A DNA stretch of 64,000 bases from Candidatus Gastranaerophilaceae bacterium (GCA_045638605.1 JAZUBS010000034.1:30112-94111); one strand, 5' to 3'; counted from the first letter of the stretch, positions 4,525 to 40,485 are shown. A program made the numbers and translations. The notes: generated from the letters alone by a model not told the origin.

Positions 4525-5241
4525 ATGAAAAAACAAATTGTTAACGCAATAGTATGTGTAGTAATTTCTACCGCCGCGTACGCAAATCAATATCCACAAA
4601 CGTACAATCAACCATATTATAATGCAAATCCGTACTCTAACGCTCAAGCGACCCTAAAAGGTTCGGTATTTATTGTTCCTGCTGGCTCCCAGTTTCCTGC
4701 AACGACAACAATGGAATTAAATTCCGGTAATTTACTACTAGGTCAAGCCGTAAATCTTTCATTGGGACAAGATTTTTATTATGATAACAAATTAGTTGCT
4801 CCTGCTGGAAGTATCATAAACGGCTCAGTTGTTCATCTTAAAAAAGCATCTTTTGCCGGCAGAAATGGACAATTACAAGTTAGATTTACAAGCATAACAA
4901 CTCCATTTGGTCAAATGATACCAATCTCAGGACAAATCAAAACAACAGATGCCACCGGCATACTAAAAGGTGGCACCGCAATGGATACAACTAAAGATTA
5001 CGCAAAAGATTTAACAATTGGCGCCGCAGGAGGCGCGTTAAGCGGACTAGTAATGGGTGCTGTTTCTGACGGTTCTGTTGGAAAAGGTGCTGCTATAGGA
5101 ACAGCAATCGGCGCTGGACTAGGACTAGGGAAATCAGTTATTGATAAAGGTCACAATGTTATAATCCCTGCAAATAGCTCAATTGCAATAGAAATTACTC
5201 AACCAATAACAGTAAACTCTGCCCAAACATATCAGTATTAA
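4525..5241 (+). CDS. secreted hypothetical protein with C-terminal glycine-zipper segment
   Basis: GGAGG RBS. Signal peptide MKKQIVNAIVCVVISTAAYA. Glycine-zipper-like GAAGGALSGLVMGAVSDGSVGKGAAIGTAIGAGLGLG. Confidence 0.65.
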   Translation: MKKQIVNAIVCVVISTAAYANQYPQTYNQPYYNANPYSNAQATLKGSVFIVPAGSQFPATTTMELNSGNLLLGQAVNLSLGQDFYYDNKLVAPAGSIINGSVVHLKKASFAGRNGQLQVRFTSITTPFGQMIPISGQIKTTDATGILKGGTAMDTTKDYAKDLTIGAAGGALSGLVMGAVSDGSVGKGAAIGTAIGAGLGLGKSVIDKGHNVIIPANSSIAIEITQPITVNSAQTYQY

Positions 5242-5319
5242 TCCATTTGGGGGTTATGAATAATTAATTTTTTAATTATTCTTTTAACAAACATAAATTT
5301 AAGAAACAAGAATTTAAAA

Positions 5320-6507
5320 ATGACAATTTTAGGAAAAATATCACAAACAACAGAAGATAACGAAAATCAACAAAAAGGTTTTGTTGTTCCTCGTTTATAT
5401 CAAAAAAAAGAAGAAGGCGTATCGTTTAAAAACTCACTGTTTTTATCATTTCTTCTTCATCCTGCATCTGTCGCTGCTGGATGGTTAATTATATTCATTT
5501 TAGCCTTGTTAGGAATTCATTTTGATGTTTTATCAAAACCTCAAACTCCTCAACGAGATATCGAATTTGTATTGGTTAATAACCCAGAAGCAGAACCTAT
5601 CAACAAAAACACAAAGAACAGAGCAGATAGAAATACTCAAGCCGGAGGGAAACACGACCCTAAAAAACCGCAAATCGAACCCTCTCCAGCTCCAGGGGCA
5701 CCTAGTGTACCTTCAGTGCAGCAACAAAAACCTGTGCAACAACCAAAACAAAAAGTTCAAACACCTAAACCTCAACCGAAGCCACAGCAACAACCTGTAG
5801 CCAAAACGGTTGAAAAACAAGTTTCAAAACCTGCTGAGCAACCAGCACCTAAAAATGTAACACCTAAACCAGTTCCGCCGGCACCAATACCGGCACCAAC
5901 GGTTAGTACCCCAAAAGTTGTTGACGTACCTAAAAGTGCAATGCAAATTCCTGTACCAAAAACAACCGCACCAAAACTAGCAGGCTCTTATGGAGGACCT
6001 GTTACTGGCACAAAATCAGGAATTGGCTCAACATCAACTGGCTCATCTAGTAGCGTAAATACAAGACCAGCTCCAACATTTACCCCATCATCAACTAGTT
6101 CAACATCAGGTTCTGCTGGTAGATTTTCAAGCGGGCAATATGGTAATGGACAAGCTGGAAATCCAAGCCCAGGAAACCCAAACGGTAGACCAGGAATAGA
6201 TGCAATAAAAGAACCAGACTTTGGTCCATATATGAGAGAATTACAACGTCGTATCAAAATGAATTGGGATCCTCCAAAAGGAAACGAATCAAAACGAGTT
6301 GTATTAATGTTCAAAATCGCTAGAGATGGACGATTATTATCTTGCAGAGTTAGTCGCTCATCAGGTGTTCAAGCAGCCGACAGAGCAGCAATTTCTGCAG
6401 TAGAGCTAACTGCTCCATTCAAACCACTGCCCCCTGAATTTAAAGGACAAAGTGTGGATATTCAATTTACGTTTGATTACAACGTATTTGGAGCGTCAAG
6501 ATATTAA
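5320..6507 (+). CDS. TonB/TolA-like energy-transducer protein
   Basis: One N-terminal TM helix and a long P/Q/K-rich spacer. The C-terminal domain YMRELQRRIKMNWDPP...RLLSCRVSRSSG...AAISAVE is typical of TonB_C/TolA_C. Sits upstream of exbB-exbD-exbD. Confidence 0.75.
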   Translation: MTILGKISQTTEDNENQQKGFVVPRLYQKKEEGVSFKNSLFLSFLLHPASVAAGWLIIFILALLGIHFDVLSKPQTPQRDIEFVLVNNPEAEPINKNTKNRADRNTQAGGKHDPKKPQIEPSPAPGAPSVPSVQQQKPVQQPKQKVQTPKPQPKPQQQPVAKTVEKQVSKPAEQPAPKNVTPKPVPPAPIPAPTVSTPKVVDVPKSAMQIPVPKTTAPKLAGSYGGPVTGTKSGIGSTSTGSSSSVNTRPAPTFTPSSTSSTSGSAGRFSSGQYGNGQAGNPSPGNPNGRPGIDAIKEPDFGPYMRELQRRIKMNWDPPKGNESKRVVLMFKIARDGRLLSCRVSRSSGVQAADRAAISAVELTAPFKPLPPEFKGQSVDIQFTFDYNVFGASRY

Positions 6508-6534
6508 AAAATGAGATAAATGAGGATATAAATT

Positions 6535-7170
6535 ATGGAATTATTATTACATTCAATTAAACTAGACTGGCCAGTATTATTGCCAATTTTCGTCTGTTCA
6601 ATATTGGTAGTTGCAGTTGCAATCAAAAAGATTTCTTTCTATCAAAAAAACAAACGAGATATTCAACCATTTATTAAATCAATGCATGCTGCTTTATCTG
6701 CAGGCAACATTGAAAAAGCACAAATGCTAAGTGAAAATTTAGGCGGAGTTTGTGGCGGAGTTGCTGATGAAGCATTAAGAATTTTCGTTGATCAAAAATC
6801 TGGTTTTTCTCGTTCTTTTGATATTTCCGCTAATTTTGCATCTCGTGAGCTTGAAAAATATTTAACAATACTTGGTACAATTGGTGGGGTTGCTCCATTT
6901 CTAGGGTTGTTTGGTACGGTTGTCAGAATTCTATACACATTCCAAGACCTAGCAACACAAGGTAACCAATCTGCAGCAGTTGCAATGGGTATTGGTTCTG
7001 CTTTGATAGCAACCGCATTTGGTTTGGGCGTTGCAATTGTAGCTGTTGTTTTCTACAACTATTTTCAATCTGTTGTAAAAAGATTTGAAGATGACTTCCA
7101 ACTTATCAAACTATTATTCTTAAGTTTTACGGATAGTAAAAATGAAACTTCTATTCAATCAAACGTATAG
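6535..7170 (+). CDS. exbB: MotA/TolQ/ExbB-family proton channel
   Basis: Three TM segments. Conserved LGTIGGVAPFLGLFGTV and GIGSALIATAFGLGVAI segments. Confidence 0.85.
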   Translation: MELLLHSIKLDWPVLLPIFVCSILVVAVAIKKISFYQKNKRDIQPFIKSMHAALSAGNIEKAQMLSENLGGVCGGVADEALRIFVDQKSGFSRSFDISANFASRELEKYLTILGTIGGVAPFLGLFGTVVRILYTFQDLATQGNQSAAVAMGIGSALIATAFGLGVAIVAVVFYNYFQSVVKRFEDDFQLIKLLFLSFTDSKNETSIQSNV

Positions 7171-7193
7171 TCTCAAATTTTGTAGGATAAATT

Positions 7194-7718
7194 ATGGCAT
7201 TTAGTTCAAATAAAAAAGGAAAATTATTTACAGAAATAAATATCACACCGTTAACTGATATTTTCTTGGTCTTACTAATCATTATGATGGTTATAGCCCC
7301 TAGTTTTCAGTCAATGGACAACAATATTTCTGTTCCCGAAATAAATAGTGGGATTTCTGTAGAACAGAAAAATGCTACGATTTCTATCACAAAAGAAGGT
7401 TCTTACTATATAAACGGCAAATCAATTCAACCAGAAACCCTTGTCGCAGAGCTTGAACAACTTAAACCTACTTTAGAAAAAAAAGAAGTTGTAGTTAAAG
7501 CTGATAAAGATACAAAAAGTCGTGAAATAATGAATGTAATGAATTCCGCACAAAACGCGGGTTATGAAAAATTAATTGTTGCCGGTGAACCACTTACAAA
7601 AAAAGAACAAAGAAAACTAAAAGAAAACTCGCAAATGTCTAACTACACAAGTGCTGTTCCAGAAATTGAACCACAAGAACAACAAAGACCACGAGTAAAT
7701 ATTCCACAAGAGGGCTAA
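7194..7718 (+). CDS. exbD: ExbD/TolR-family protein (long C-terminal tail)
   Basis: EINITPLTDIFLVLLIIMMVIAP TM signature followed by an ExbD periplasmic domain. Confidence 0.85.
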   Translation: MAFSSNKKGKLFTEINITPLTDIFLVLLIIMMVIAPSFQSMDNNISVPEINSGISVEQKNATISITKEGSYYINGKSIQPETLVAELEQLKPTLEKKEVVVKADKDTKSREIMNVMNSAQNAGYEKLIVAGEPLTKKEQRKLKENSQMSNYTSAVPEIEPQEQQRPRVNIPQEG

Positions 7719-7721
7719 AAA

Positions 7722-8111
7722 ATGTCATCAAAAAGACGAGATTGTTTTAATGAAATAAATATTACACCACTAACCGATATTTTCTTAGTGTTACTAATCA
7801 TTATGATGGTTATAGCACCTCTTTTAGACGAACAAGGGCTCAATCTTACAGTACCTGAAAATGTCGCAGAAGAAAAAGTTAAAGAGTCAAAGATTTTAAC
7901 TGTTTTGGTGGATGAACAAGGTCAATATTTTATAAACGAAGAACCAATTTTAGCTAAAGACCTAAGTTCAATTATTAAATCAAGCCTAACTCAATATCCA
8001 GATGGTTTAATGATTCAATCTGATGGAGAAGCAACTCACGGAGCTATAGTCAAGCTGATGGACGAAGCAAGAAATGCTGGCGTGAAAAATATTTCAGTTT
8101 CACAAATTTAA
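7722..8111 (+). CDS. exbD: ExbD/TolR-family protein
   Basis: Same 23-aa EINITPLTDIFLVLLIIMMVIAP segment as the preceding gene, then an ExbD domain. Confidence 0.85.
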   Translation: MSSKRRDCFNEINITPLTDIFLVLLIIMMVIAPLLDEQGLNLTVPENVAEEKVKESKILTVLVDEQGQYFINEEPILAKDLSSIIKSSLTQYPDGLMIQSDGEATHGAIVKLMDEARNAGVKNISVSQI

Positions 8112-8189
8112 ATTGTGTTAGTCTTTTAATGCACCTTAAGTTACTAATTGCCAAGCAATGTCTGAGCTACAACCTAACGCCCTAGGATT

Positions 8190-8519
8190 TTATTTATGCC
8201 AAGTTTTTATGTATTCACTCATTGATTCACGAGTTAAGGTCTTTGAACTAATAGGACACCAAGGCGCAAGCGCGTTTTTAATAAATCCTTTAAGCCCTCT
8301 TCCTATAGATTTTATTTTAAATGATAATACTCCATTAGAATTTGCGTTAATCAATAAATTGTAATTGGCTTTCTTTTTAAATTCAGCAACAACTTCCGAT
8401 GAAAGGAGTTTACATGTTTGCGTTAGACCAACTTTTAAAAAATTTTGTTCATTATGAAAAACAACACCTCTAAAAGACATTGAATTATTATTTGTATTAT
8501 TAACTGCGGCTAATTTCAT
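8190..8519 (-). CDS. hypothetical protein, tandem paralog of 8538..9014
   Basis: Shares SF[RG][GR]VxFHN...KIKSxGRGLxGFIxNxxAPW...YIxxWH with the upstream ORF. Confidence 0.6.
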   Translation of the reverse strand: MKLAAVNNTNNNSMSFRGVVFHNEQNFLKVGLTQTCKLLSSEVVAEFKKKANYNLLINANSNGVLSFKIKSIGRGLKGFIKNALAPWCPISSKTLTRESMSEYIKTWHK

Positions 8520-8537
8520 TTTTTATTCCCTTATAAA

Positions 8538-9014
8538 TTATATATCTTGCTTTTCTACCTTCGTTAACAGATTAAGATTTTCTTTTTCTTTTACTTTTTC
8601 TTCTGTTTGAATTTTTTGTAATCTTATTTTTCTAGTATTAGTATCAATTTTTTCTTGAGCCTTAGCCTTTTTATATGCGGCTTTACTAGGATGCCAAATA
8701 TCTATATAATCCTCACAATCAATTTTACTAAGTGCCGTTGTATAAAATCGTTTCCAAGGAGCGATAAAATTAGTAATAAACCCATATAAACCTCGTCCTA
8801 CTGATTTTATTTTATATTTAAAAATCTTTTCCTTAGTATTTGTTGTTATGTGTAAGTCAAAATCCTTTCTTTTAGAAAATTCTTTTACAGCACTAGTATT
8901 AACAAGATTATCAATGACTTCAGTGCTTAACTTTACTAAGTCTTTTTTATTGTGAAAATAAACTCTACCAAAAGAAGTCGTATTATTTGTTGTGCTTATT
9001 GAATTTATTTGCAT
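8538..9014 (-). CDS. hypothetical protein, tandem paralog of 8190..8519 with a Lys/Glu-rich tail
   Basis: See the paralog alignment above. Starts 9 nt downstream of the dxs stop, so it is probably co-transcribed. Confidence 0.6.
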   Translation of the reverse strand: MQINSISTTNNTTSFGRVYFHNKKDLVKLSTEVIDNLVNTSAVKEFSKRKDFDLHITTNTKEKIFKYKIKSVGRGLYGFITNFIAPWKRFYTTALSKIDCEDYIDIWHPSKAAYKKAKAQEKIDTNTRKIRLQKIQTEEKVKEKENLNLLTKVEKQDI

Positions 9015-9023
9015 ATCTTCCCC

Positions 9024-10787
9024 CTAACAAGACATACTTAGCATATCCCTAACGTCTTCTAAAATCAATTCTTTTTTAAGTCTGAAATTTGTATAAAGTT
9101 CGTCTAGCGGAGTTCTGTCCGTAAATTCTTTTTTAGCACCATAGCATAAAACTTTCATATCTGAGTTACCATAAAAACGAGCAATTTTTTCACCAAACCC
9201 ACCATTTAAAAGTCCGTCTTCTAAAGAAATTACAACGGAATGATTATGTTTTAATTCTTCAAGCATTTCTTCATCAATACCTGTAATAAACCTAGGGTTA
9301 ATCAATGTTGCGTCAATGTTCAATTTTTCTTTCAATTCAGATTTTACTTCTTTTGCTAAATGAAAGAAATTTCCAAGACCTAAAATTACAACTTTTTCCC
9401 CTCTTTCTTCCATTTTAAACTTATTTAAAATAGAATAATCAGTTTTGTCTTCAATTCCTGTTGAAATAACTTCGCTAAAAGGCACACGGATTGCCAATGG
9501 GTGAGAATTTTGTTGATAAGCATATTCTAACATTGCAATATATTCTTCTTTACAAGTTGGAGCAAGATAAACCATATTTGGAATATTTGAAATTAATGGA
9601 ATATCAAAACAGCCTAAATGAGTACAATCTGCACTAGAAATCACCCCCCAATAAACAAGCATTGTCATTGGTGATTTGTTAAGACACAAATCTTGTGATA
9701 ATTGGTCATACGTTCTTTGAACAAACGAGCTAAGTATTGCTAAAAATGGTTTTGAGCCAGTTTTTGCCATAGCTGACGCGCAAGCAATTGCATGTTCTTC
9801 TGCAATACCCACGTCCATATACTGTCTACCCAGTTTTTCTCTAAACTCTTTTGTAAATCCAGTAGCTCCAGGAGTTGCTGGTGTTATTGCCATAAGTGTT
9901 TTATCTTCTTTGGCTTTAGCAAGAATAAAATCTGTTGTAAGTTTTTCGTACGTTTCGCACGCCATTACTTGAGTATTTTGGGACTCATCCAAAATTCCAG
10001 GGCAAACCCAATGGAATTTTTCTTTATTTTGTTCTGCTTGTGATAGCCCACAGCCCTTAAGTGTCCTTACATGTACGATTATTGGATGGTCAATATCTTT
10101 TACTTTTTCAAAAATTTGAATTAATTTTTCAACATTGTTACCTTCATCAACATAAATATAATCAAACCCGATAGTTTTAAAGAAGTTATTTGTTGCTTTT
10201 CCTTTAGTATCACGCAATTCGGCTAAATTTGCATAAATTCCGCCAAAATTTTCTGCAATTGACATATCATTATCATTTACAACAATAATCATATTAGAGT
10301 CTAAAACGGCAGCATTATTTAAACCTTCAAGCGATTCTCCTCCTGTCAAAGAACCATCACCAATTAAAGCAATCACGTTATGTCTTTCATTCTTTAAATC
10401 CCTAGCTTTTGCAACACCTGTTGCCAAACTAACAGAGGTCGAAGTATGTCCAACAGTGAACAAATCATGTTCACTTTCTTGAGGTGCCGTGTAACCAGTA
10501 TATTTTAAATAATTTTGCGGATTTAAAAAGCCCTCTTTCCTACCTGTTAAAATTTTATGTGGATAACATTGATGTGAAACGTCAAAAATAATTTTATCAA
10601 ATGGTGAATTAAACACATAGTGCAAAGCCATCGTAAGCTCTACAACTCCTAAATTTGGTGCCATATGACCACCTGTTGTGTTTACTTTTTTTATTATTAA
10701 TTCCCGCATTTCTTGCGCTAATTCTTCCATTTCACTAATTGATAAAGTTTTTAAATCTTGAGGTGAATTAATTTTATCTAAAATCAC
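9024..10787 (-). CDS. dxs: 1-deoxy-D-xylulose-5-phosphate synthase
   Basis: 587 aa. Motifs: GGHMAPNLGVVELTMALH, DVSHQCYPHKILTGR, GHTSTSVSLATG, GDGSLTGGESLEGLNNA. Confidence 0.88.
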   Translation of the reverse strand: MILDKINSPQDLKTLSISEMEELAQEMRELIIKKVNTTGGHMAPNLGVVELTMALHYVFNSPFDKIIFDVSHQCYPHKILTGRKEGFLNPQNYLKYTGYTAPQESEHDLFTVGHTSTSVSLATGVAKARDLKNERHNVIALIGDGSLTGGESLEGLNNAAVLDSNMIIVVNDNDMSIAENFGGIYANLAELRDTKGKATNNFFKTIGFDYIYVDEGNNVEKLIQIFEKVKDIDHPIIVHVRTLKGCGLSQAEQNKEKFHWVCPGILDESQNTQVMACETYEKLTTDFILAKAKEDKTLMAITPATPGATGFTKEFREKLGRQYMDVGIAEEHAIACASAMAKTGSKPFLAILSSFVQRTYDQLSQDLCLNKSPMTMLVYWGVISSADCTHLGCFDIPLISNIPNMVYLAPTCKEEYIAMLEYAYQQNSHPLAIRVPFSEVISTGIEDKTDYSILNKFKMEERGEKVVILGLGNFFHLAKEVKSELKEKLNIDATLINPRFITGIDEEMLEELKHNHSVVISLEDGLLNGGFGEKIARFYGNSDMKVLCYGAKKEFTDRTPLDELYTNFRLKKELILEDVRDMLSMSC

Positions 10788-34234: not shown

Positions 34235-34498
34235 ATGTACCAAGATGAAAAGCTCATTTGTGAAGACTGTGGAGCTGAATTTATCTTCACACAAGGCGAA
34301 CAGGAATTTTATGCAGAAAAAGGTCTTGTTAATAAGCCAAAAAGATGTCAAGATTGCCGTAAAGCAAGAAGACAAAAATCTAAAAAAAGACTTTATGACA
34401 CTGTTTGCTCAGCATGTGGTGCAGCAACTAAAGTTCCTTTTAAACCAATTGAAGGAAAAGAAGTTTTTTGCAGAGACTGCTACGCTAAAAACAAATAG
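34235..34498 (+). CDS. zinc-ribbon protein (CxxC x4)
   Basis: 87 aa with CEDCG...CQDCR...CSACG...CRDCY. GGAG RBS and a strong terminator downstream. Confidence 0.65.
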   Translation: MYQDEKLICEDCGAEFIFTQGEQEFYAEKGLVNKPKRCQDCRKARRQKSKKRLYDTVCSACGAATKVPFKPIEGKEVFCRDCYAKNK

Positions 34499-34631: not shown

Positions 34632-36719
34632 ATGACTAATTTGAATTTACATAATTATAATAATCAATATCCAATCAATGCTTATCCGCAACAAATGGCA
34701 GCGTATACTCCTAATATGCAAGGCGTACCTCCTTCTATGCAAGGGTTGGATTATGATACATTAAAACTTCAAACGCAAGACAGTGCGCTTGGTCAAGCAA
34801 CAAGACACTACAGCACTGAAACCCCTGAAGCTACACTAAGCACAATGTTAAAAAGTTTAGCCTGCAGTTTATTAATGAGTATCGGATTTACCGGCGCAAC
34901 AAACTGGTTAATGAGTTCAAAAAAAATAGCTGATGGGGCTTCTAACGCGAAAGACTTCGCGCAAACAAGATTGTATAAAGCCGGACAAGTCCTTGATGAT
35001 AAAATTGGAGACTCAACAATTGTAAAAGGCGTACAAAACGCTGCAAATGGAATTAAAGGATTTTTCTCTAAAATTACGCCAGCACCATTAAAAGAAGCAT
35101 TTGCCAAAATGCAAACAGGAAGTATCGCTGTTTGGGACAAACAAGGTATGTTCCATTTAGGAAAAGGTGCAGAGGCGTTAAATGATTTTGTTGATGCAAC
35201 AACAAAAGTCCCATCTGACAAAATTACAGCATTATTAAAAAACAACGGTGCTGGACACAAAGTCGATGAAGTTTTAGATATTATTAATAAAGTTAAAAAA
35301 GGTTCTATTCGCGGCACTGCAGCGTTTGAAAAGTTGTACCCGATATTTGATAAAATGCCGGCAAAAGAATTAGCAAAACTCAATGAGCAGGGTTGGTTTG
35401 GCAAACTGCTTGGTTTGAAAACGGACTTAAGTAATGGCTTGCATAAAGCAAAATTCTTTAATGGTTCATTGAATAAAGCCCAAGGTCCCGTTGCGAAATT
35501 ATTCCAAAAAATGTCTGCCCTTGTTGGTGAAGCATCTGGAAACGGCGTTTTAGGCGGAAAAATGGCTCTATTTATGGGCTCATTTGGTTTAATGCAAGGC
35601 TTTACTGCTGCAGCCAAAGCAGAAAAAGGTGACAAGCTTAAAGCCTTTATGGAAGATTATATCGGATTTACATTAGGTTCTTATTTAATGTCATTCGTTG
35701 TTGGTACTTGGTTTAACAAATTCTTAGGTGTAACTGAATTAGGTATGGATGTCAATTCAAAAGCATTCAAAGATATTTGTACAAAATTAAAGCTAGACCC
35801 TAAAACAACCAAACGAGTCCAAGAAGCAGTAATTGCATTTAACAAAGAATTTAAAGATATTAGAAAAGCAAAAAAAGTTATAGAACAACTAAAATCTGGT
35901 AAAATTACAAAAGATGTTGCCTATAAACAAATCAAAAACTTAGTAGATACAAAAAATCTAAAAATTGATAATTTGTATGAATCAATTTCTCAATCACGAT
36001 TGATAGACAAAGTTGAAACTAGGATGGCAGAATTTGGAACCAAGGGAACTCTTCGTCAAGCAATAAAAAATTCTATGAAGTCTAAATTAACAATAAAAGA
36101 AGCCGGTATCGGTAAATACATTGTCCAAAAACCACTTGAATTAATGGGTAAGTTGTTCTCTGTTGGTCGTTATAATATGATGGATGGCAGCAAATTCTCA
36201 TTCAAGAGCATAAGAAAAGCCGCATCACGTTGGGGTGGAGGTATCGGTAGAATGATACTTGTAGGATTTGTTTTAGTTGAACCATTTAGAAAAGGTTTTG
36301 TAAAACTTTCTCACGCTATTTTTGGTAAACCTAAAAACTCAACATTAGATGATGGTAAAAAAACGAAGACTGAAGAATTACCAAACCAACAACTTGCTCA
36401 ACTTCAGCAAATGGCACAACAGCAACAAACACCTCAACCACAACAAATTCAACCCGCACAACAACCTATGGCAGCTGCTCCAATGAACAATTCTCAGCCA
36501 ATTGCATCTGCGCCAATAAATGCACAAACTCAAAACAAAACACCAACGATTGAAGATGAAATAGCAGCAACGGAATTAAAACGTTCTTATATTCCATCTG
36601 CTCAACCCTCTCAGTTTGCGCTTCAAAAAGATCCAAGAGAAGCAGAAGTTGAAAATGCAATCTTAAAAGCACAAAAAGCTGAAAATGCTGCTCAAAACTT
36701 TTTATCTAGCGGATTTTAA
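34632..36719 (+). CDS. large hypothetical membrane-associated protein with Q/P-rich C-terminal region
   Basis: 695 aa, GGGG RBS, hydrophobic segments (LACSLLMSIGF, GFTLGSYLMSFVVGTWF, ILVGFVLV). No family recognised. Confidence 0.65.
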   Translation: MTNLNLHNYNNQYPINAYPQQMAAYTPNMQGVPPSMQGLDYDTLKLQTQDSALGQATRHYSTETPEATLSTMLKSLACSLLMSIGFTGATNWLMSSKKIADGASNAKDFAQTRLYKAGQVLDDKIGDSTIVKGVQNAANGIKGFFSKITPAPLKEAFAKMQTGSIAVWDKQGMFHLGKGAEALNDFVDATTKVPSDKITALLKNNGAGHKVDEVLDIINKVKKGSIRGTAAFEKLYPIFDKMPAKELAKLNEQGWFGKLLGLKTDLSNGLHKAKFFNGSLNKAQGPVAKLFQKMSALVGEASGNGVLGGKMALFMGSFGLMQGFTAAAKAEKGDKLKAFMEDYIGFTLGSYLMSFVVGTWFNKFLGVTELGMDVNSKAFKDICTKLKLDPKTTKRVQEAVIAFNKEFKDIRKAKKVIEQLKSGKITKDVAYKQIKNLVDTKNLKIDNLYESISQSRLIDKVETRMAEFGTKGTLRQAIKNSMKSKLTIKEAGIGKYIVQKPLELMGKLFSVGRYNMMDGSKFSFKSIRKAASRWGGGIGRMILVGFVLVEPFRKGFVKLSHAIFGKPKNSTLDDGKKTKTEELPNQQLAQLQQMAQQQQTPQPQQIQPAQQPMAAAPMNNSQPIASAPINAQTQNKTPTIEDEIAATELKRSYIPSAQPSQFALQKDPREAEVENAILKAQKAENAAQNFLSSGF

Positions 36720-36869
36720 TTAATAATTATATTTAAAAAAATAATTTATTTTGAACTGAACCCCTAAGACAAAACACAAAAATTTGTTTTAGGGGTCGTT
36801 CATTTAAACTTCAATGTTTTTATTGGTTTTACAAAATCAGAAATCCTGTTTACAAAAATTTAATATTTA

Positions 36870-36898
36870 TTGACAAAATCGAAAATTAGCTTTAGGAT
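36870..36898 (+). promoter_or_regulatory. sigma-70-like promoter of the rSAM operon
   Basis: TTGACA (36870-36875), 17 nt, then TAGGAT (36893-36898). GGAG RBS at 36911-36914, ATG at 36921. Confidence 0.5.
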
Positions 36899-36920
36899 TA
36901 TTATACAAAAGGAGAAGAAT

Positions 36921-37160
36921 ATGCCGTCTATTAAACCTGTATCCAATATTATATTAACTCAATTTAAAAAGAATTATTCTAAAGTTTCATTACCTCAAAC
37001 GCGAGTGCACGATTTCCACGCTGATATAAAAACAAAAAAATATATATCTGACCCTTTTGCAGATGATGACGATGATATTATTGTAGGTTCAGCTGGTGGC
37101 GATAGTTGGTCTTTTTGTGGAGACTTAGAACTTGGTTGTCTTCCTCTTCTAAGTTTTTAA
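36921..37160 (+). CDS. candidate RiPP precursor peptide (79 aa)
   Basis: MPSIKPVSNIILTQFKKNYSKVSLPQTRVHDFHADIKTKKYISDPFADDDDDIIVGSAGGDSWSFCGDLELGCLPLLSF. Good RBS and its own promoter. Lies 16 nt upstream of an rSAM/SPASM gene. The C-terminal part has 2 Cys, 1 Trp and a GG. Confidence 0.6.
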   Translation: MPSIKPVSNIILTQFKKNYSKVSLPQTRVHDFHADIKTKKYISDPFADDDDDIIVGSAGGDSWSFCGDLELGCLPLLSF

Positions 37161-37176
37161 TATAATTTAAATTTTT

Positions 37177-38343
37177 ATGTCTATTGATTTATCTATAGAA
37201 AAATGCTTTAAGTACACTTATATAAAAAAAAGCAAACAAGATGAAAAGTCTGTTTTCAGTGGATATCTAAGTGCACTACCTAAAGATTTTATATATCATT
37301 ATCCCCCAAATATCATTTGGAAGTTGACTTCTGCGTGTAATTTAAGATGCAAACATTGTTTTTATTATACAAATAAATCAATGTTTAATACACAAAACGA
37401 CCTGACAAAAGAAGAAGCGTTTAATCTTGCCAAATATTTAGTTGATGAATTTAATATTTTGTCTGTTTTGTTAACTGGTGGAGAAGCTATGTTAACACCT
37501 TATTTTTTTGATTTACTAAAATACTTTAAATCTAAAAATATATGTGTGAATTTGTTTTCAAATGGAACATTAATTACAGAAGAAATTGCTGATAAACTTT
37601 CATTATTACTCAACCCCAAATACGATAATATTCAAATTAGTTTAGATGGACCAAATGCAAAAATTCATGATATTACAAGAGGAGAAGGCACATTTTTTAA
37701 ATCAATTAATGCTATAAAACTTTTAAATCAAAAAGGACTTAAAACAACTATTGCCTGCACAGTGACGTCTGAAAATGTAAATTCATTAGAAGAGTTTTCT
37801 CAAATATATCAAAACTTCGATATAAAGGAATTGCGTCTAGGAAAATATAAAGTTTTTTCGGAAGAACAAGCATATTTATCACCAAATCCAGATGATTTAT
37901 TTGTTAACTATGCCAAACTGATTAAAAAAAACATACCTGTTTCAAAAAGTTTTTTTACAGCTTATGATTTTCTAAATTATCCGCTTGGTGAAGAACTATT
38001 TAAAAAATATAATCCGCCCAAAAAATATGGTTGTAACAAACTATGCCATAATCACAATAAAGTTTTTATTTCAGCAGACGCAAAACTTTATTTGTGTACA
38101 AGTTCAGAAACCGCAAATTTATGCATTGGAGATTTGCGAAAAGAAAGTTTTGAACAAATATGGGCTCAAAGACATAACCATCCACTATTCAAACCAAGAG
38201 TTGATTTTGTTTGTAAAAAATGCCAATATAGTAAATGGTGTAATGCTGGATGTGCGGCTTTAGCATGTTTAAACACGGGAAATTCTTGTAACGCGCCTAC
38301 TGAATGTTTATACCAACACAAATTGGAGAAAGTTAATGTTTAA
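37177..38343 (+). CDS. radical SAM enzyme with C-terminal SPASM-type Cys-rich domain
   Basis: CNLRCKHCFY (CxxxCxxC), a GGE motif in LLTGGEAML, and a C-terminal Cys cluster CNKLC...LCTS...CKKCQYSKWCNAGC...C...C. Confidence 0.88.
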   Translation: MSIDLSIEKCFKYTYIKKSKQDEKSVFSGYLSALPKDFIYHYPPNIIWKLTSACNLRCKHCFYYTNKSMFNTQNDLTKEEAFNLAKYLVDEFNILSVLLTGGEAMLTPYFFDLLKYFKSKNICVNLFSNGTLITEEIADKLSLLLNPKYDNIQISLDGPNAKIHDITRGEGTFFKSINAIKLLNQKGLKTTIACTVTSENVNSLEEFSQIYQNFDIKELRLGKYKVFSEEQAYLSPNPDDLFVNYAKLIKKNIPVSKSFFTAYDFLNYPLGEELFKKYNPPKKYGCNKLCHNHNKVFISADAKLYLCTSSETANLCIGDLRKESFEQIWAQRHNHPLFKPRVDFVCKKCQYSKWCNAGCAALACLNTGNSCNAPTECLYQHKLEKVNV

Positions 38344-38635
38344 AAATGATACTATTCTTGTCCTAAACAAAAATGTGTTAAAACGTTTTGAACCAAACTT
38401 AGAAGATGGAACTCTTTTTTTATTTAATGTGCAAACTGAAAAATATTGGAGTGGAAATGCGGCTGTAGATTGCCTCATTAGAATGTTGGATGGTCAAAAT
38501 ACACTTCAAACTATATATGATTACTTGTTTGAAATTTTTGAAAATTACACTAAAGAAGAAATCTGTGAAAGCTTTGATAATATTATTAAAATACTCTTAG
38601 AAGAAGGTTTTTTGGTGATTAAAGATGACATTTAA
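38336..38635 (+). CDS. PqqD-like stand-alone peptide-binding (RRE) protein
   Basis: 99 aa. LFLFNVQTEKYWSGNAAVDCLIRMLDGQNTLQTIYDYL...ILLEEGFLV fits the PqqD-family pattern. Its ATG overlaps the upstream stop (ATGTTTAA). Confidence 0.7.
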   Translation: MFKNDTILVLNKNVLKRFEPNLEDGTLFLFNVQTEKYWSGNAAVDCLIRMLDGQNTLQTIYDYLFEIFENYTKEEICESFDNIIKILLEEGFLVIKDDI

Positions 38636-39764
38636 AGATATAACAAAAGAAGATGCTAAGATTTTTATAAAAAAATTTGTTAATCATAAAAACAATAAAT
38701 CACCGGAACTTCGTTTTATGGAGCACATTACAAAAAGTGGAATAAAAACCTTTTCAACGCCTTACAATGTTTCTTGGGAAATTACAGCTGGATGTAATTT
38801 GAGATGTAAACATTGTTGTTTTGCCAAAGAGTCATATAACGAAAAAAACGATGTTCCAACTAATATTGCTATAGATTTTGCAAATCAACTTGTAGATAAT
38901 GATTTAGTAAAAATAATGCTAACCGGTGGTGAACCATTCTTGAGAAATGATTTACTTGATATTATTTCCACTTTAAAACGTAATAATGCAATAATTGAAC
39001 TTACAACTAACGCTACTTTAATAAATGAAGATAATGCAAGAAAATTATCAGAATTGTTTAACCCACTGTATGATTTTGTTCAAGTGAGTCTTGATGGAGC
39101 AACTGCACAAACACATGAAAAAACTAGGGGCAAAAATACTTTTCAAAAAGCTATTGAAGGAATTAAATTGCTTATAAAAAACAACATAGTCGTAACTATT
39201 AACTGTGTTGTTACAACTGAAAATTTGTATGAAATGATTGAGCTTTACGAGCTTGCAATGGGCTTGGGTGTTAAATTGATAACTTTTAGCCGTATCCATT
39301 CAGAAGATACTAATTTAATTCCGGATAAAGATATTTTGTTTAAAGAAATGATAAAATTGCTTAAACATGAAAAAGACGCACTTAAGATAGATTTGAGGTT
39401 ATTCAACATTCCAGAACTAATCTCAATTCCATTAATAAAAGATAATTTACCAAACAAAAACACAAAAATTATGGATTTTTCATGTAATAAACGTGAAAAA
39501 CTCCACATTAGAAAAGATGGCGAAGTTTTTTTATGTCTTTATGCTTCAACAAAAAATGTCCTACCATTAGGCAACATAAAAACAAACACGCTAGAAGAAA
39601 TTATCAATAATGCAAATACAAACCCTTTGTTTCAAAGACGATTTCTTAAAGATACAAAATGCAACAACTGCGCAGGACAATATTATTGCAAAGCAGGTTG
39701 TCCAGTAAATGCATATATTCAAAGTAATACAATTAACGCTATAGATTTATCTTGCCAAAATTAA
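38625..39764 (+). CDS. second radical SAM / SPASM-domain enzyme
   Basis: CNLRCKHCCF, MLTGGEPFL, and a C-terminal C...CLY...CNNCAGQYYCKAGCPVNAY...C. Overlaps the PqqD-like gene by 11 nt. Confidence 0.88.
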   Translation: MTFKDITKEDAKIFIKKFVNHKNNKSPELRFMEHITKSGIKTFSTPYNVSWEITAGCNLRCKHCCFAKESYNEKNDVPTNIAIDFANQLVDNDLVKIMLTGGEPFLRNDLLDIISTLKRNNAIIELTTNATLINEDNARKLSELFNPLYDFVQVSLDGATAQTHEKTRGKNTFQKAIEGIKLLIKNNIVVTINCVVTTENLYEMIELYELAMGLGVKLITFSRIHSEDTNLIPDKDILFKEMIKLLKHEKDALKIDLRLFNIPELISIPLIKDNLPNKNTKIMDFSCNKREKLHIRKDGEVFLCLYASTKNVLPLGNIKTNTLEEIINNANTNPLFQRRFLKDTKCNNCAGQYYCKAGCPVNAYIQSNTINAIDLSCQN

Positions 39765-40168
39765 ACTACAATATTTTCATTACTCATTGGCAAAGTTTTT
39801 ACATTAAACTTTTTTTTGATTTTTGTGTCTAAAGAATTAGATACTATAGCCATAACACAAGAAATGGTAATGCAGCTCAAAATTGCGGTAATTGTACCAA
39901 TTCCGGTCTTTTTAAGGATAGATGGAGGTTGTTCTTTTGAAAATTTATTTACAAGCTTACTTCCCAAAACAAAACCAATAGGAGCAGATGCAACTACAGC
40001 AATCCCATCAATAAGCGCATTTTTATCATGCATTTTTTTATATGAAGTTACAAATTCATCTTTTTGATTATTTGGAACAATTAATTTTCTTTGTATATAT
40101 TTACTATAATTCACAGTATACTCTGTATTAGTGCCATTTACACCACTCTCTTGAATTCGTATCGTCAT
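39761..40168 (-). CDS. small membrane protein
   Basis: AAAGG RBS before the ATG at 40168 (MTIRIQESGVNGTN...). Two TM segments. Convergent with the rSAM operon, overlapping its stop by 4 nt. Confidence 0.55.
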   Translation of the reverse strand: MTIRIQESGVNGTNTEYTVNYSKYIQRKLIVPNNQKDEFVTSYKKMHDKNALIDGIAVVASAPIGFVLGSKLVNKFSKEQPPSILKKTGIGTITAILSCITISCVMAIVSNSLDTKIKKKFNVKTLPMSNENIVV

Positions 40169-40278
40169 ATAAAACCTTTCCACGCAAAATCTTTTATTGT
40201 TATAATAAGTGAAAATAAAATATTTTGATAGAGCTTTAACAATAATTTACAAAAATCAAAATCGCTTACAGAGGAAAT

Positions 40279-40485
40279 ATGCAAAAAATAGAAATTGGAA
40301 AAATATATCAACATTATAAAGGTAATGAATACAAAATTATAGCCTTAGCAAAACATTCAGAAACTTTAGAGGAAATGGTGGTCTATCAATCAATAAAAGA
40401 TAAGCAAGTGTGGGTGCGACCAATATCAATGTGGAATGATATTATAAATGAACACAAAACACTAAGATTTACTCTTAAAAATTAG
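40279..40485 (+). CDS. DUF1653-like protein
   Basis: 68 aa. YQHYKGNEYKIIALAKHSETLEEMVVYQ...WVRPISMW matches DUF1653 by eye. Confidence 0.7.
   Translation: MQKIEIGKIYQHYKGNEYKIIALAKHSETLEEMVVYQSIKDKQVWVRPISMWNDIINEHKTLRFTLKN

Follow-up and report, generated by a model that had tools for sequence, protein, structure and literature searches.

The DNA studied here is a stretch of 64,000 nucleotides (the window) from a Candidatus Gastranaerophilaceae bacterium. The Gastranaerophilales are uncultured, non-photosynthetic relatives of cyanobacteria from animal and human guts. The window carries four closely packed genes on its + strand: a small open reading frame (ORF) for a peptide, two genes for radical S-adenosylmethionine (SAM) enzymes with SPASM domains, here called r1 and r2, and between these a gene for a small PqqD-like protein. 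A first-pass annotation of the same DNA had read the four genes as a candidate pathway for a peptide made by the ribosome and modified after translation (RiPP), with the PqqD-like protein as a separate RiPP recognition element (RRE). The features of the locus are as follows.

36752-36802, + strand: stable hairpin 3' of a gene for a 695-residue protein (-23.4 kcal/mol, z = -5.7, by RNA folding)
36870-36898, + strand: promoter-like site TTGACA (36870-36875), 17-nt spacer, TAGGAT
36911-36914, + strand: GGAG ribosome-binding site, 6 nt 5' of the peptide ATG, read from the sequence
36921-37160, + strand: putative precursor peptide gene, 79 residues by translation (ATG at 36921, stop ending at 37160)
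37116-37157, + strand: codons of the conserved C-terminal core, C66 to F79, from the peptide alignment (A4) and the codon table
37177-38343, + strand: r1, radical SAM/SPASM enzyme, 388 residues (Pfam Radical_SAM and SPASM)
38336-38635, + strand: PqqD-like protein, presumed RRE, 99 residues (Pfam PqqD, E = 1e-3)
38625-39764, + strand: r2, radical SAM/SPASM enzyme, 379 residues (Pfam Radical_SAM and SPASM)

The gene spacing is as the first-pass annotation had described it: r1 starts 16 nt past the peptide stop, the PqqD-like ORF overlaps the stop of r1 by 8 nt (ATGTTTAA), and r2 overlaps the PqqD-like ORF by 11 nt. The GGAG site was likewise found again, and our translation of the peptide agrees exactly with the one quoted there. 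The same annotation had also credited the small ORF with a promoter of its own. The TTGACA-17-TAGGAT site is indeed present, and at 10/12 it is the top-scoring promoter-like site in 36.5-40.4 kb, tied with two others; in this AT-rich DNA, 18 such sites were seen in the region, compared to 21.5 +/- 4.7 in shuffled sequences. As the number of sites is no higher than chance, we consider a promoter at 36870-36898 plausible, and infer its function from its position alone. The hairpin at 36752-36802 was matched in stability by none of 200 shuffles; it has no clean U-run and was not called in a consensus terminator scan. It is terminator-like and would separate the 695-residue protein gene from the cassette, which fits a peptide gene that starts its own transcription unit. 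The G+C content is 0.28-0.34 and flat over 30-46 kb, so that there is no compositional sign of a horizontally acquired island; the surroundings are ordinary low-GC chromosome with no local anomaly.

A conserved unit with a conserved peptide

A word search with the peptide alone returned one relative, a 97%-identical strain variant, and homologues were therefore sought via the enzymes. For r2 we found 13 homologues at 46-72% identity, followed by a second tier at 29-40%. The gene order peptide-r1-PqqD-r2 is kept in four out of four independent loci inspected, namely L002 (r2 identity to the window 71%), L003/L004 (60%), L005 (52%) and L006 (50%), and the flanks of the cassette are unrelated among loci (ClpB; HMG-CoA reductase and GH35; DUF1749 and HMGL-like; a large unannotated ORF and an M16 peptidase). 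A further locus, L001, is from a 98%-identical strain, and the peptide gene lies directly 5' of r1 in the window and in L001-L006. The four genes thus form one conserved unit. The first-pass annotation had set out beforehand, as a check on its reading, whether enzyme pairs elsewhere lack a conserved small ORF at their side; such an ORF, with a C-G...C core, was found beside the enzyme pair at all four independent loci.

The small ORFs upstream of r1 in these relatives have identical C-terminal ends and share little in mid-sequence (...FCGDVSLGCIPLLSF; ...YCGSVELMCVPLLSF; ...PCGSTEDYCIPLLSF; ...GCGCEDWCTPLLSF). Conservation was read from a 13-peptide alignment (A4), with residues numbered as in the window peptide, where the leader spans approximately residues 1-62 and the core approximately residues 63-79, SWSFCGDLELGCLPLLSF. 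Ten positions are invariant: P6, L24, P25, C66, G67, C73, L76, L77, S78 and F79. The core consensus in the cassette relatives is C-G-[DSN]-x-[ES]-x-x-C-x-P-L-L-S-F-stop; taking the window peptide and the 15 others together, 16 distinct family peptides end in C-G-x-x-[ES]-x-x-C-x-[PAI]-L-L-S-F-stop, and every retrieved sequence terminates in L-L-S-F. Whereas this extreme C-terminus is invariant, the leader has diverged to ~27% identity, with two short motifs kept, [IV]-x-P-[VI] close to the N-terminus and, at about residue 24, L-P-x-E. All 16 peptides have an acidic residue two, three or four positions after the first Cys, and 14 of them an aromatic residue 1-3 positions before it. Not every peptide keeps this upstream aromatic: N-C-S-P-C is the sequence in P0125 and L005, and F-L-E-C that in P0135, whose aromatic stands three residues upstream.

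The codons at the invariant residues differ synonymously over five diverged loci. Serine is encoded by AGT, AGC, TCT and TCA, that is, by both serine codon families, and proline by CCT, CCG and CCA; Leu, Cys, Gly and Phe codons vary synonymously as well. Selection has therefore acted on the amino-acid sequence and not on the DNA. We used this codon table in place of a ratio of non-synonymous to synonymous substitution rates (dN/dS) because the window and L001 differ too little, with 3 synonymous and 2 non-synonymous changes in the peptide gene, both of the latter in the leader (98.2% DNA identity). Judged by its codons, the small ORF is a real protein under selection, beyond what chance would give, and the conservation that the first-pass annotation had made a point to check is borne out at the protein level.

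Several traits that had been attributed to the core did not survive the alignment. The Gly-Gly just upstream of it is not conserved and hence does not point to cleavage after a double glycine; the DDDD(D) patch occurs only in the window's own subclade; and of the two cysteines and one tryptophan, both cysteines are invariant, while the tryptophan reflects just an aromatic preference 2-3 residues before the first Cys. As to the likeness of the peptide to known precursors, it matches no Pfam or NCBIfam family, and in a cluster look-up no source gives a name to peptides of this family, which we refer to as PLLSF peptides after their C-terminus.

The PLLSF peptide family is very rare. A profile of five peptides recovered 12 peptides from 5.8 billion proteins, and an exhaustive HMMER search with the 13-peptide profile found 11 at E <= 1e-3, all 63-80 residues long, among 1.84 billion cluster representatives. 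In GTDB with one genome per species (185,579 species), relatives at more than 33% identity occur only in metagenome-assembled genomes (MAGs) of Candidatus Gastranaerophilales, Gastranaerophilaceae and Melainabacteria (L006-L011), and all named genomes with a close cassette are Candidatus Gastranaerophilales or Melainabacteria. An r2 profile run against the JGI metagenomes gave nothing closer than 28% identity and no added loci, and an exact look-up of r1 in the contig collection gave no record. A literature search found nothing on the PLLSF peptide family or motif, nor on RiPPs or radical SAM peptide maturases of Gastranaerophilales or Melainabacteria.

The radical SAM enzymes and their PqqD-like partner

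Both enzymes score above the Pfam cut-offs (29.5 bits for Radical_SAM, PF04055; 21.5 for SPASM, PF13186; 23.4 for PqqD, PF05402), with 87 bits (r1) and 90 bits (r2) for Radical_SAM and 23.7 and 36 bits, respectively, for SPASM. The CX3CX2C motif, CNLRCKHC, lies at residues 54-61 in r1 and 57-64 in r2, and the SAM-binding GGE motif at residue 101 in both. In the SPASM region r1 has CX2CX5CX3C at 346-359 together with conserved C290, C307 and C316; r2 has the full seven-Cys motif (C287, G299-x4-C304, C346-x2-C349-x5-C355-x3-C359, C377), and its cysteines are invariant over 28 homologues. The earlier estimate of 55-65 residues before the cluster motif was slightly high, given first cysteines at 54 and 57; the point drawn from it, that this segment looks too short for a fused RRE, holds. 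The two enzymes are 34% identical and, by sequence, are old paralogues.

The AlphaFold2 model of r2 has a mean predicted local distance difference test (pLDDT) score of 90.9, and its nearest solved folds are SuiB (template-modelling score 0.70), SkfB, PqqE, BlsE, the anaerobic sulfatase-maturating enzyme (anSME) and CteB, at 18-21% identity; most of these structural neighbours are SPASM enzymes that modify peptides or proteins. A sequence comparison with the PDB gave PqqE, CteB and SkfB as the top matches of r2 and SkfB as that of r1 (E = 2.6e-15). In NCBIfam (June 2026 release) the best match of both enzymes is ScmE, at 126 bits for r1 and 133 bits for r2 compared to a cut-off of 400, followed by MftC, StsB, NirJ, AhbD and WgkB, and neither enzyme reaches or approaches the cut-off of any family. 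Of these, NirJ and AhbD are heme enzymes, and the others, like ScmE, act as maturases of peptides. A close match to sulfatase maturases or cofactor enzymes had been named in the first-pass annotation as an argument against a RiPP role; no family-level match of this kind was found, all NCBIfam scores lying far under the cut-offs.

These scores bear directly on a reading without any peptide pathway, where the enzymes would act in protein or tetrapyrrole maturation (as anSME, AhbD or NirJ) or in viperin-like antiviral defence, and the small ORF would be incidental. A generic likeness of the radical SAM core to the NirJ, AhbD, anSME and pVip models is what speaks for it. However, the scores fall far short for anSME (66-83 bits, cut-off 349), NirJ (99-114, cut-off 515) and viperin (67 for r1, cut-off 180), and the PADLOC match to pVip (77 bits) covers the radical SAM core only; moreover, the small ORF shows conservation and selection and in every case adjoins the enzymes, and a PqqD-family partner is always there or fused. 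Based on the viperin score, the core-only pVip match and the presence of a SPASM domain we rejected the defence reading, and a non-peptide or defence role is effectively excluded.

The 99-residue protein between the enzymes belongs, by its family profile, to the PqqD family, as the first-pass annotation had proposed: PF05402 is matched by 13 of 13 aligned PqqD-like proteins from related loci (best E = 7e-6), though the window protein taken alone is sub-threshold. Its sole NCBIfam match is ScmD, at 13 bits compared to a cut-off of 100, and the profile of the PqqD-like proteins gave only noise against PDB sequences (PqqD 5sxy at E = 2.1). A Foldseek search with a single-sequence AlphaFold2 model, whose strands and helices are compatible with an RRE, had the RREs TbiB1, a lasso-peptide B1 protein and CteB among its top matches; as all matches have E > 0.1, we do not count the fold search as evidence. 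In L167, from a Candidatus Margulisbacteria MAG (GCA_028715625.1), a PqqD-like domain is fused to the N-terminus of a radical SAM/SPASM enzyme (5001-6572, 523 residues). Such a fusion speaks for a functional connection of the two proteins, and with it for the suggestion that the discrete PqqD-like protein of the window serves the enzymes. The gene upstream of the fusion encodes a 193-residue protein ending in ...WGHDKYSCCEAPVD, possibly an unusually long precursor.

A modular superfamily and the likely product

Beyond the close relatives lies a second tier of loci with the same kinds of genes in other combinations; the leaders of their peptides have an M-x-[IV]-x-P-V-like N-terminal start in most cases.

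L007: peptide, peptide, r1, PqqD, r2; peptide ends ...GGGCPSYVPPCMIPA and ...GGGCGASYTPACAPW
L168: peptide, PqqD, r2, r1, PqqD; peptide end ...GDCNGSNYYWTDPCPGP
L008: peptide, r1, PqqD; peptide end ...DFDCGEGNNYEYFIHLA
L010: peptide, r1, PqqD; peptide end ...RYCGSDFACSLLY
L011 and L169: peptide, r1, PqqD; peptide end ...MKCSDYE...
L166: peptide, PqqD, r2, then an MFS transporter; peptide end ...WQIGTACFGPM
L171: peptide, PqqD, radical SAM enzyme (r2-like); peptide end ...RCWCAPGEYSFW
L172 and L173: peptide, PqqD, radical SAM enzyme; peptide end ...RPC[SR]...

A lone r1-type enzyme is thus present in L008, L010, L011 and L169 and a lone r2-like enzyme in L166 and L171, each with a peptide and a PqqD-like protein, and L168 has both modules with one PqqD each. 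This suggests two modules, one per conserved cysteine, and since each enzyme type is found alone with peptide and PqqD, each apparently works without the other. The position of the PqqD gene in the window, between r1 and r2, is what one would expect of an r1-PqqD module and a PqqD-r2 module with one PqqD in common. In a neighbour-joining tree the r1-type and r2-type enzymes form two clades, which stand jointly apart from the included MftC, ScmE and StsB representatives. Scored with hidden Markov models for r1 and r2, members of the close family differ by more than 400 bits and distant r1-type enzymes by +65 to +140 bits.

The tandem precursor genes in L007 (2526-3096) have different cores (...GGGGGGCPSYVPPCMIPA and ...GGGCGASYTPACAPW) and stand ahead of a single r1-PqqD-r2 set; before the core, L007 has a Gly run where the window's subclade has an Asp run.

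The modular pattern has to be weighed against the possibility that r1 and r2 form an obligate complex for one shared set of links, as has been reported of TrnC and TrnD (thuricin CD), or that one of them is a non-catalytic scaffold. The two radical SAM enzymes of thuricin CD are described as synergistic (PMC12093266), and r1 and r2 are translationally coupled through the shared PqqD gene and its two overlaps. Yet the CX3CX2C, GGE and SPASM cysteines are kept in both enzymes, and each paralogue has relatives that stand by themselves next to a peptide and a PqqD partner, so we regard a complex or scaffold as quite improbable. That the two act on separate sites, r1 in the C66 region and r2 in the C73 region, is a suggestion that the gene combinations invite and to which we would give not quite even chances.

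Three regularities in the cores, all from small numbers, bear on where the enzymes may act. Cys is the sole residue type found in every C-terminal region of the superfamily. Where the core has just one Cys, there is just one radical SAM enzyme (L008, L166, L172, L173), all two-enzyme systems have at least two Cys, and the number of radical SAM genes never exceeds that of core cysteines. Lastly, r1-type systems have a C-[GS]-[DSE]-like first site in common, while near the C-terminus most systems with an r2 have a Cys with a Pro no more than three residues after it. Sister cassettes of the same lineage have quite different cores.

The residues around the cysteines leave room for another chemistry, namely a RiPP with C-C or C-O cross-links to aromatic or aliphatic side chains, in the manner of streptide, darobactin or PQQ, with the cysteines in disulfides or another role. 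Candidate residues are the Trp or Tyr before the first Cys, the C-terminal Phe, Leu and Pro; the Phe is invariant, and an aromatic lies 1-3 residues ahead of the first Cys in all but two of the PLLSF peptides. The top structural match of r2, SuiB, makes a Lys-Trp C-C cross-link, PqqE also ranks high, and WgkB is among the leading NCBIfam matches. However, P0125, L005 and P0135 show that the upstream aromatic is not a constant of the family, only Cys is always present in the C-terminal regions, and radical SAM genes never outnumber core cysteines. We therefore consider cross-links of this kind unlikely, if less so than an obligate complex.

The cassette is very probably a radical-SAM-modified ribosomal peptide system, and the most likely product is a C-terminal peptide with two radical SAM cross-links, probably thioethers. 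In the mechanism we propose, the PqqD-like protein would bind the leader at [IV]xP[VI] and LPxE and present the C-terminal core to r1 and r2; each enzyme would generate a 5'-deoxyadenosyl radical that abstracts a hydrogen, leading to one intramolecular cross-link, with the first site (C66-G-D-L-E) falling to r1 and the C-terminal one (C73-L-P-L-L-S-F) to r2. The links would most probably be thioethers between the Cys sulfur and a carbon, of the sactipeptide or ranthipeptide type, and two invariant cysteines with a nearby acidic residue are compatible with such a link. PapB-type maturases are reported to link Cys to Asp or Glu (PMC9413430), and by analogy with PapB the acidic residue 2-4 positions past C66 may be the acceptor. 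The assignment of both modifications to thioethers at C66 and C73 is tentative, and to us somewhat less probable than its negation; two maturases may also mean two chemically different cross-links, as the first-pass annotation had suggested. Leader removal and export, if any, would proceed through genes outside the operon. Taken in full, the reading of the locus as a conserved, self-contained four-gene RiPP cassette of Candidatus Gastranaerophilales (Melainabacteria) is one that we hold to be reasonably probable.

A number of observations weigh against this reading. Similarity of sequence or structure cannot tell enzymes that form C-S links from those that form C-C or C-O links, and the C-C bond makers SuiB and PqqE are among the top structural matches of r2. 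Full conservation of the extreme C-terminus is seen more typically in precursors of cofactors, such as MftA, than in the cores of antibiotics. The distant r2-like enzymes are barely separated by the r1 and r2 models, with gaps of -28 to +14 bits; their classification is weak, and the assignment of modules to sites therefore rests on few loci. The window's own PqqD-like protein matches Pfam PqqD with 19.8 bits (E = 1e-3), below the cut-off, and its structural model is of low confidence (pLDDT 56). Finally, across loci the cassette lacks a consistently linked gene for a protease, an exporter or immunity, which is unusual for an exported antimicrobial RiPP.

Known pathways and neighbouring genes

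In its gene content the cassette resembles the SynChlorMet cassette (ScmC, ScmD, ScmE, ScmF; NCBIfam TIGR04248-TIGR04251), which likewise has two PqqE-like radical SAM/SPASM paralogues and a small PqqD-related protein, ScmE being the top match of r1 and r2 and ScmD the lone NCBIfam match of the 99-residue protein. The scores nonetheless fall far short also for ScmF (90 bits for r1 and 98 for r2, cut-off 400 as for ScmE), and as both enzymes are closer to ScmE than to ScmF, they are not an ScmE/ScmF pair. The gene order differs, the one ScmE-annotated sequence in our tree (P0042) lies outside the clade of r1 and r2, and in the window a conserved precursor is identified. The immediate neighbours, the 695-residue and a 140-residue ORF, have no NCBIfam match, to ScmC or otherwise, and the operon has only four genes. 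To our knowledge, from the family descriptions, no substrate has been identified for the SynChlorMet cassette, and a literature search found no paper that mentions it.

With sactipeptide and ranthipeptide systems (AlbA, SkfB, StsB, CteB, PapB) the cassette shares SPASM radical SAM enzymes, a PqqD-family RRE and a core that contains Cys; SkfB and CteB rank with the best matches in both sequence and structure, and the window peptide has an acidic residue 2-4 positions past its first Cys. In contrast to those systems, the RRE of the window is a separate protein and not an N-terminal fusion, the precursor has no curated family, no transporter or protease is linked, and a thioether is here a tentative proposal. 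The maturase cut-offs are missed widely: StsB 120-127 bits compared to 625, PapB 64-85 compared to 340, SkfB 64 compared to 300 (r1) and AlbA 72 compared to 850 (r2).

Thuricin CD and ruminococcin C are encoded by loci with more than one precursor gene and with genes dedicated to transport and immunity. The cassette differs from them in its single precursor, its shared discrete RRE and its lack of linked transport; what is alike is the presence of two paralogous radical SAM enzymes per RiPP locus (TrnC/TrnD and RumMC1/RumMC2; PMC12093266 and PMC8188230).

Mycofactocin (MftA, MftB, MftC) offers a different parallel, with a discrete PqqD-like partner, a SPASM radical SAM enzyme and a short peptide with a conserved extreme C-terminus; MftC is the annotation of many database neighbours at 27-33% identity. 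In a pathway of the mycofactocin or PQQ type, the invariant C-terminal residues would be modified by the radical SAM enzymes, then excised and used inside the cell, not exported, as a redox cofactor or other small molecule, and a number of traits can be read in this way: the better matches of the enzymes include the MftC and PqqE families, MftB and PqqD are discrete partners of the same type, an invariant L-L-S-F-stop behind a leader of ~27% identity resembles the conserved C-terminal residues of MftA, and there is no linked gene for export, for immunity or for a protease of its own. The enzymes nevertheless miss these families widely (MftC 123 bits for r1 and 110 for r2, cut-off 265; PqqE 91 bits for r2, cut-off 381, and outside the top 25 for r1), and the window peptide ends in P-L-L-S-F, not G-V-Y, with two radical SAM enzymes instead of one and in another lineage and distribution. 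General Pfam scans of 14 flanking genes showed none of the domains expected of MftD, MftE and MftF or of PqqB and PqqC, which were not specifically searched for. The small number of cluster representatives, the patchy occurrence within one order and the non-syntenic flanks are unlike a core cofactor, and the differing cores of sister cassettes are the pattern of diversification seen in natural-product RiPPs. We therefore consider a peptide-derived cofactor very improbable, slightly more so than the obligate complex.

By its genes, the cassette appears to work like other radical SAM/SPASM and RRE pathways for RiPPs and yet falls outside the families tested (SynChlorMet, sactipeptide and ranthipeptide maturases, mycofactocin, PQQ, viperin). 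What is new is the precursor family, the enzyme clades and the two-module layout with a PqqD gene between the enzymes; the cassette is a precursor-containing counterpart of the SynChlorMet-type layout. Uncharacterised radical SAM RiPP clusters are common, and this one is set apart by its unusually invariant extreme C-terminus, the variants in enzyme number and the host lineage. It is a compact four-gene system with a defined 14-residue core, and thus testable; the natural one-enzyme and two-enzyme variants make the assignment of enzymes to sites testable too. Should the links prove to be ordinary thioethers, the cassette contributes a precursor family and an enzyme family that are both new, and a clear case of a discrete RRE encoded between its two maturases; with links of another type, it might stand for a new class of RiPP or for a peptide-derived cofactor specific to the lineage. 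A chemically new class of this kind, specific to gut Melainabacteria, in which the paralogous SPASM pair and one free-standing RRE place two different radical cross-links on CG..C.PLLSF, at least one of a type not described so far and for example involving the Pro-Leu-Leu-Ser-Phe tail, is an idea that we put forward as doubtful.

The first-pass annotation had pointed out that the operon encodes no protease or exporter; this is confirmed, and extends to the 14 flanking genes scanned by Pfam (27.3-36.7 kb and 39.8-50.1 kb). These flanking genes include a malonyl-CoA:ACP transacylase-like acyltransferase, a SIS-domain protein, a pyridine-nucleotide-disulfide oxidoreductase, a TPR protein, a glycosyltransferase and a tRNA methyltransferase.

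Three candidates for additional cassette parts were rejected. MFS and MatE transporters lie nearby in L003 and L166 only. M16 and M14 peptidases lie 3' of the cassette in L006 only, where 7260-9061 encodes an M16 (insulinase-type) peptidase and an M14-like carboxypeptidase after r2 on the same strand; because no homologue of these was found in the window or the other fetched loci, a part for them in leader removal is only a possibility. The third is a protein of ~200 residues with no Pfam family, which occurs near five cassettes (one of the PLLSF family and four distant) and not in the window. It lies within ~2.5 kb of the cassette in L003 (1374-1985), L166 (3578-4255), L010 (7462-8151) and L169 (5552-6187), and forms the C-terminal third of the ORF at 7413-9500 in L011, with pairwise E-values of 1e-5 to 1e-52 among the five; it may be a membrane protein of accessory or immunity type, or simply a lineage-specific neighbour.

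On the 3' side of the cassette, an ORF of 140 residues with hydrophobic stretches, possibly membrane-spanning, is convergent with r2 (39761-40183, - strand), and because the two stop codons overlap (TTAA) there is no room for a terminator between them. It has no Pfam, NCBIfam or PADLOC family; L002 has an ORF 51% identical to it at the same place (7137-7541), and L003 has the GH35 gene there. We consider it probably a matter of lineage synteny and not a cassette part. On the 5' side, the 695-residue protein (34632-36719, + strand) has Gln/Pro-rich ends and likewise no Pfam, NCBIfam or PADLOC family; large ORFs with no Pfam family also adjoin the cassettes of L007, L168, L169 and L171, with no detectable homology to it. 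Two small conserved genes lie further out: upstream, 34235-34498 (+ strand) encodes an 87-residue protein with two treble-clef zinc-finger domains (zf_Tbcl and zf_Tbcl_2), and beyond the 140-residue ORF 40279-40485 (+ strand) encodes a 68-residue DUF1653 protein, which is also found 3' of the cassette in L002.

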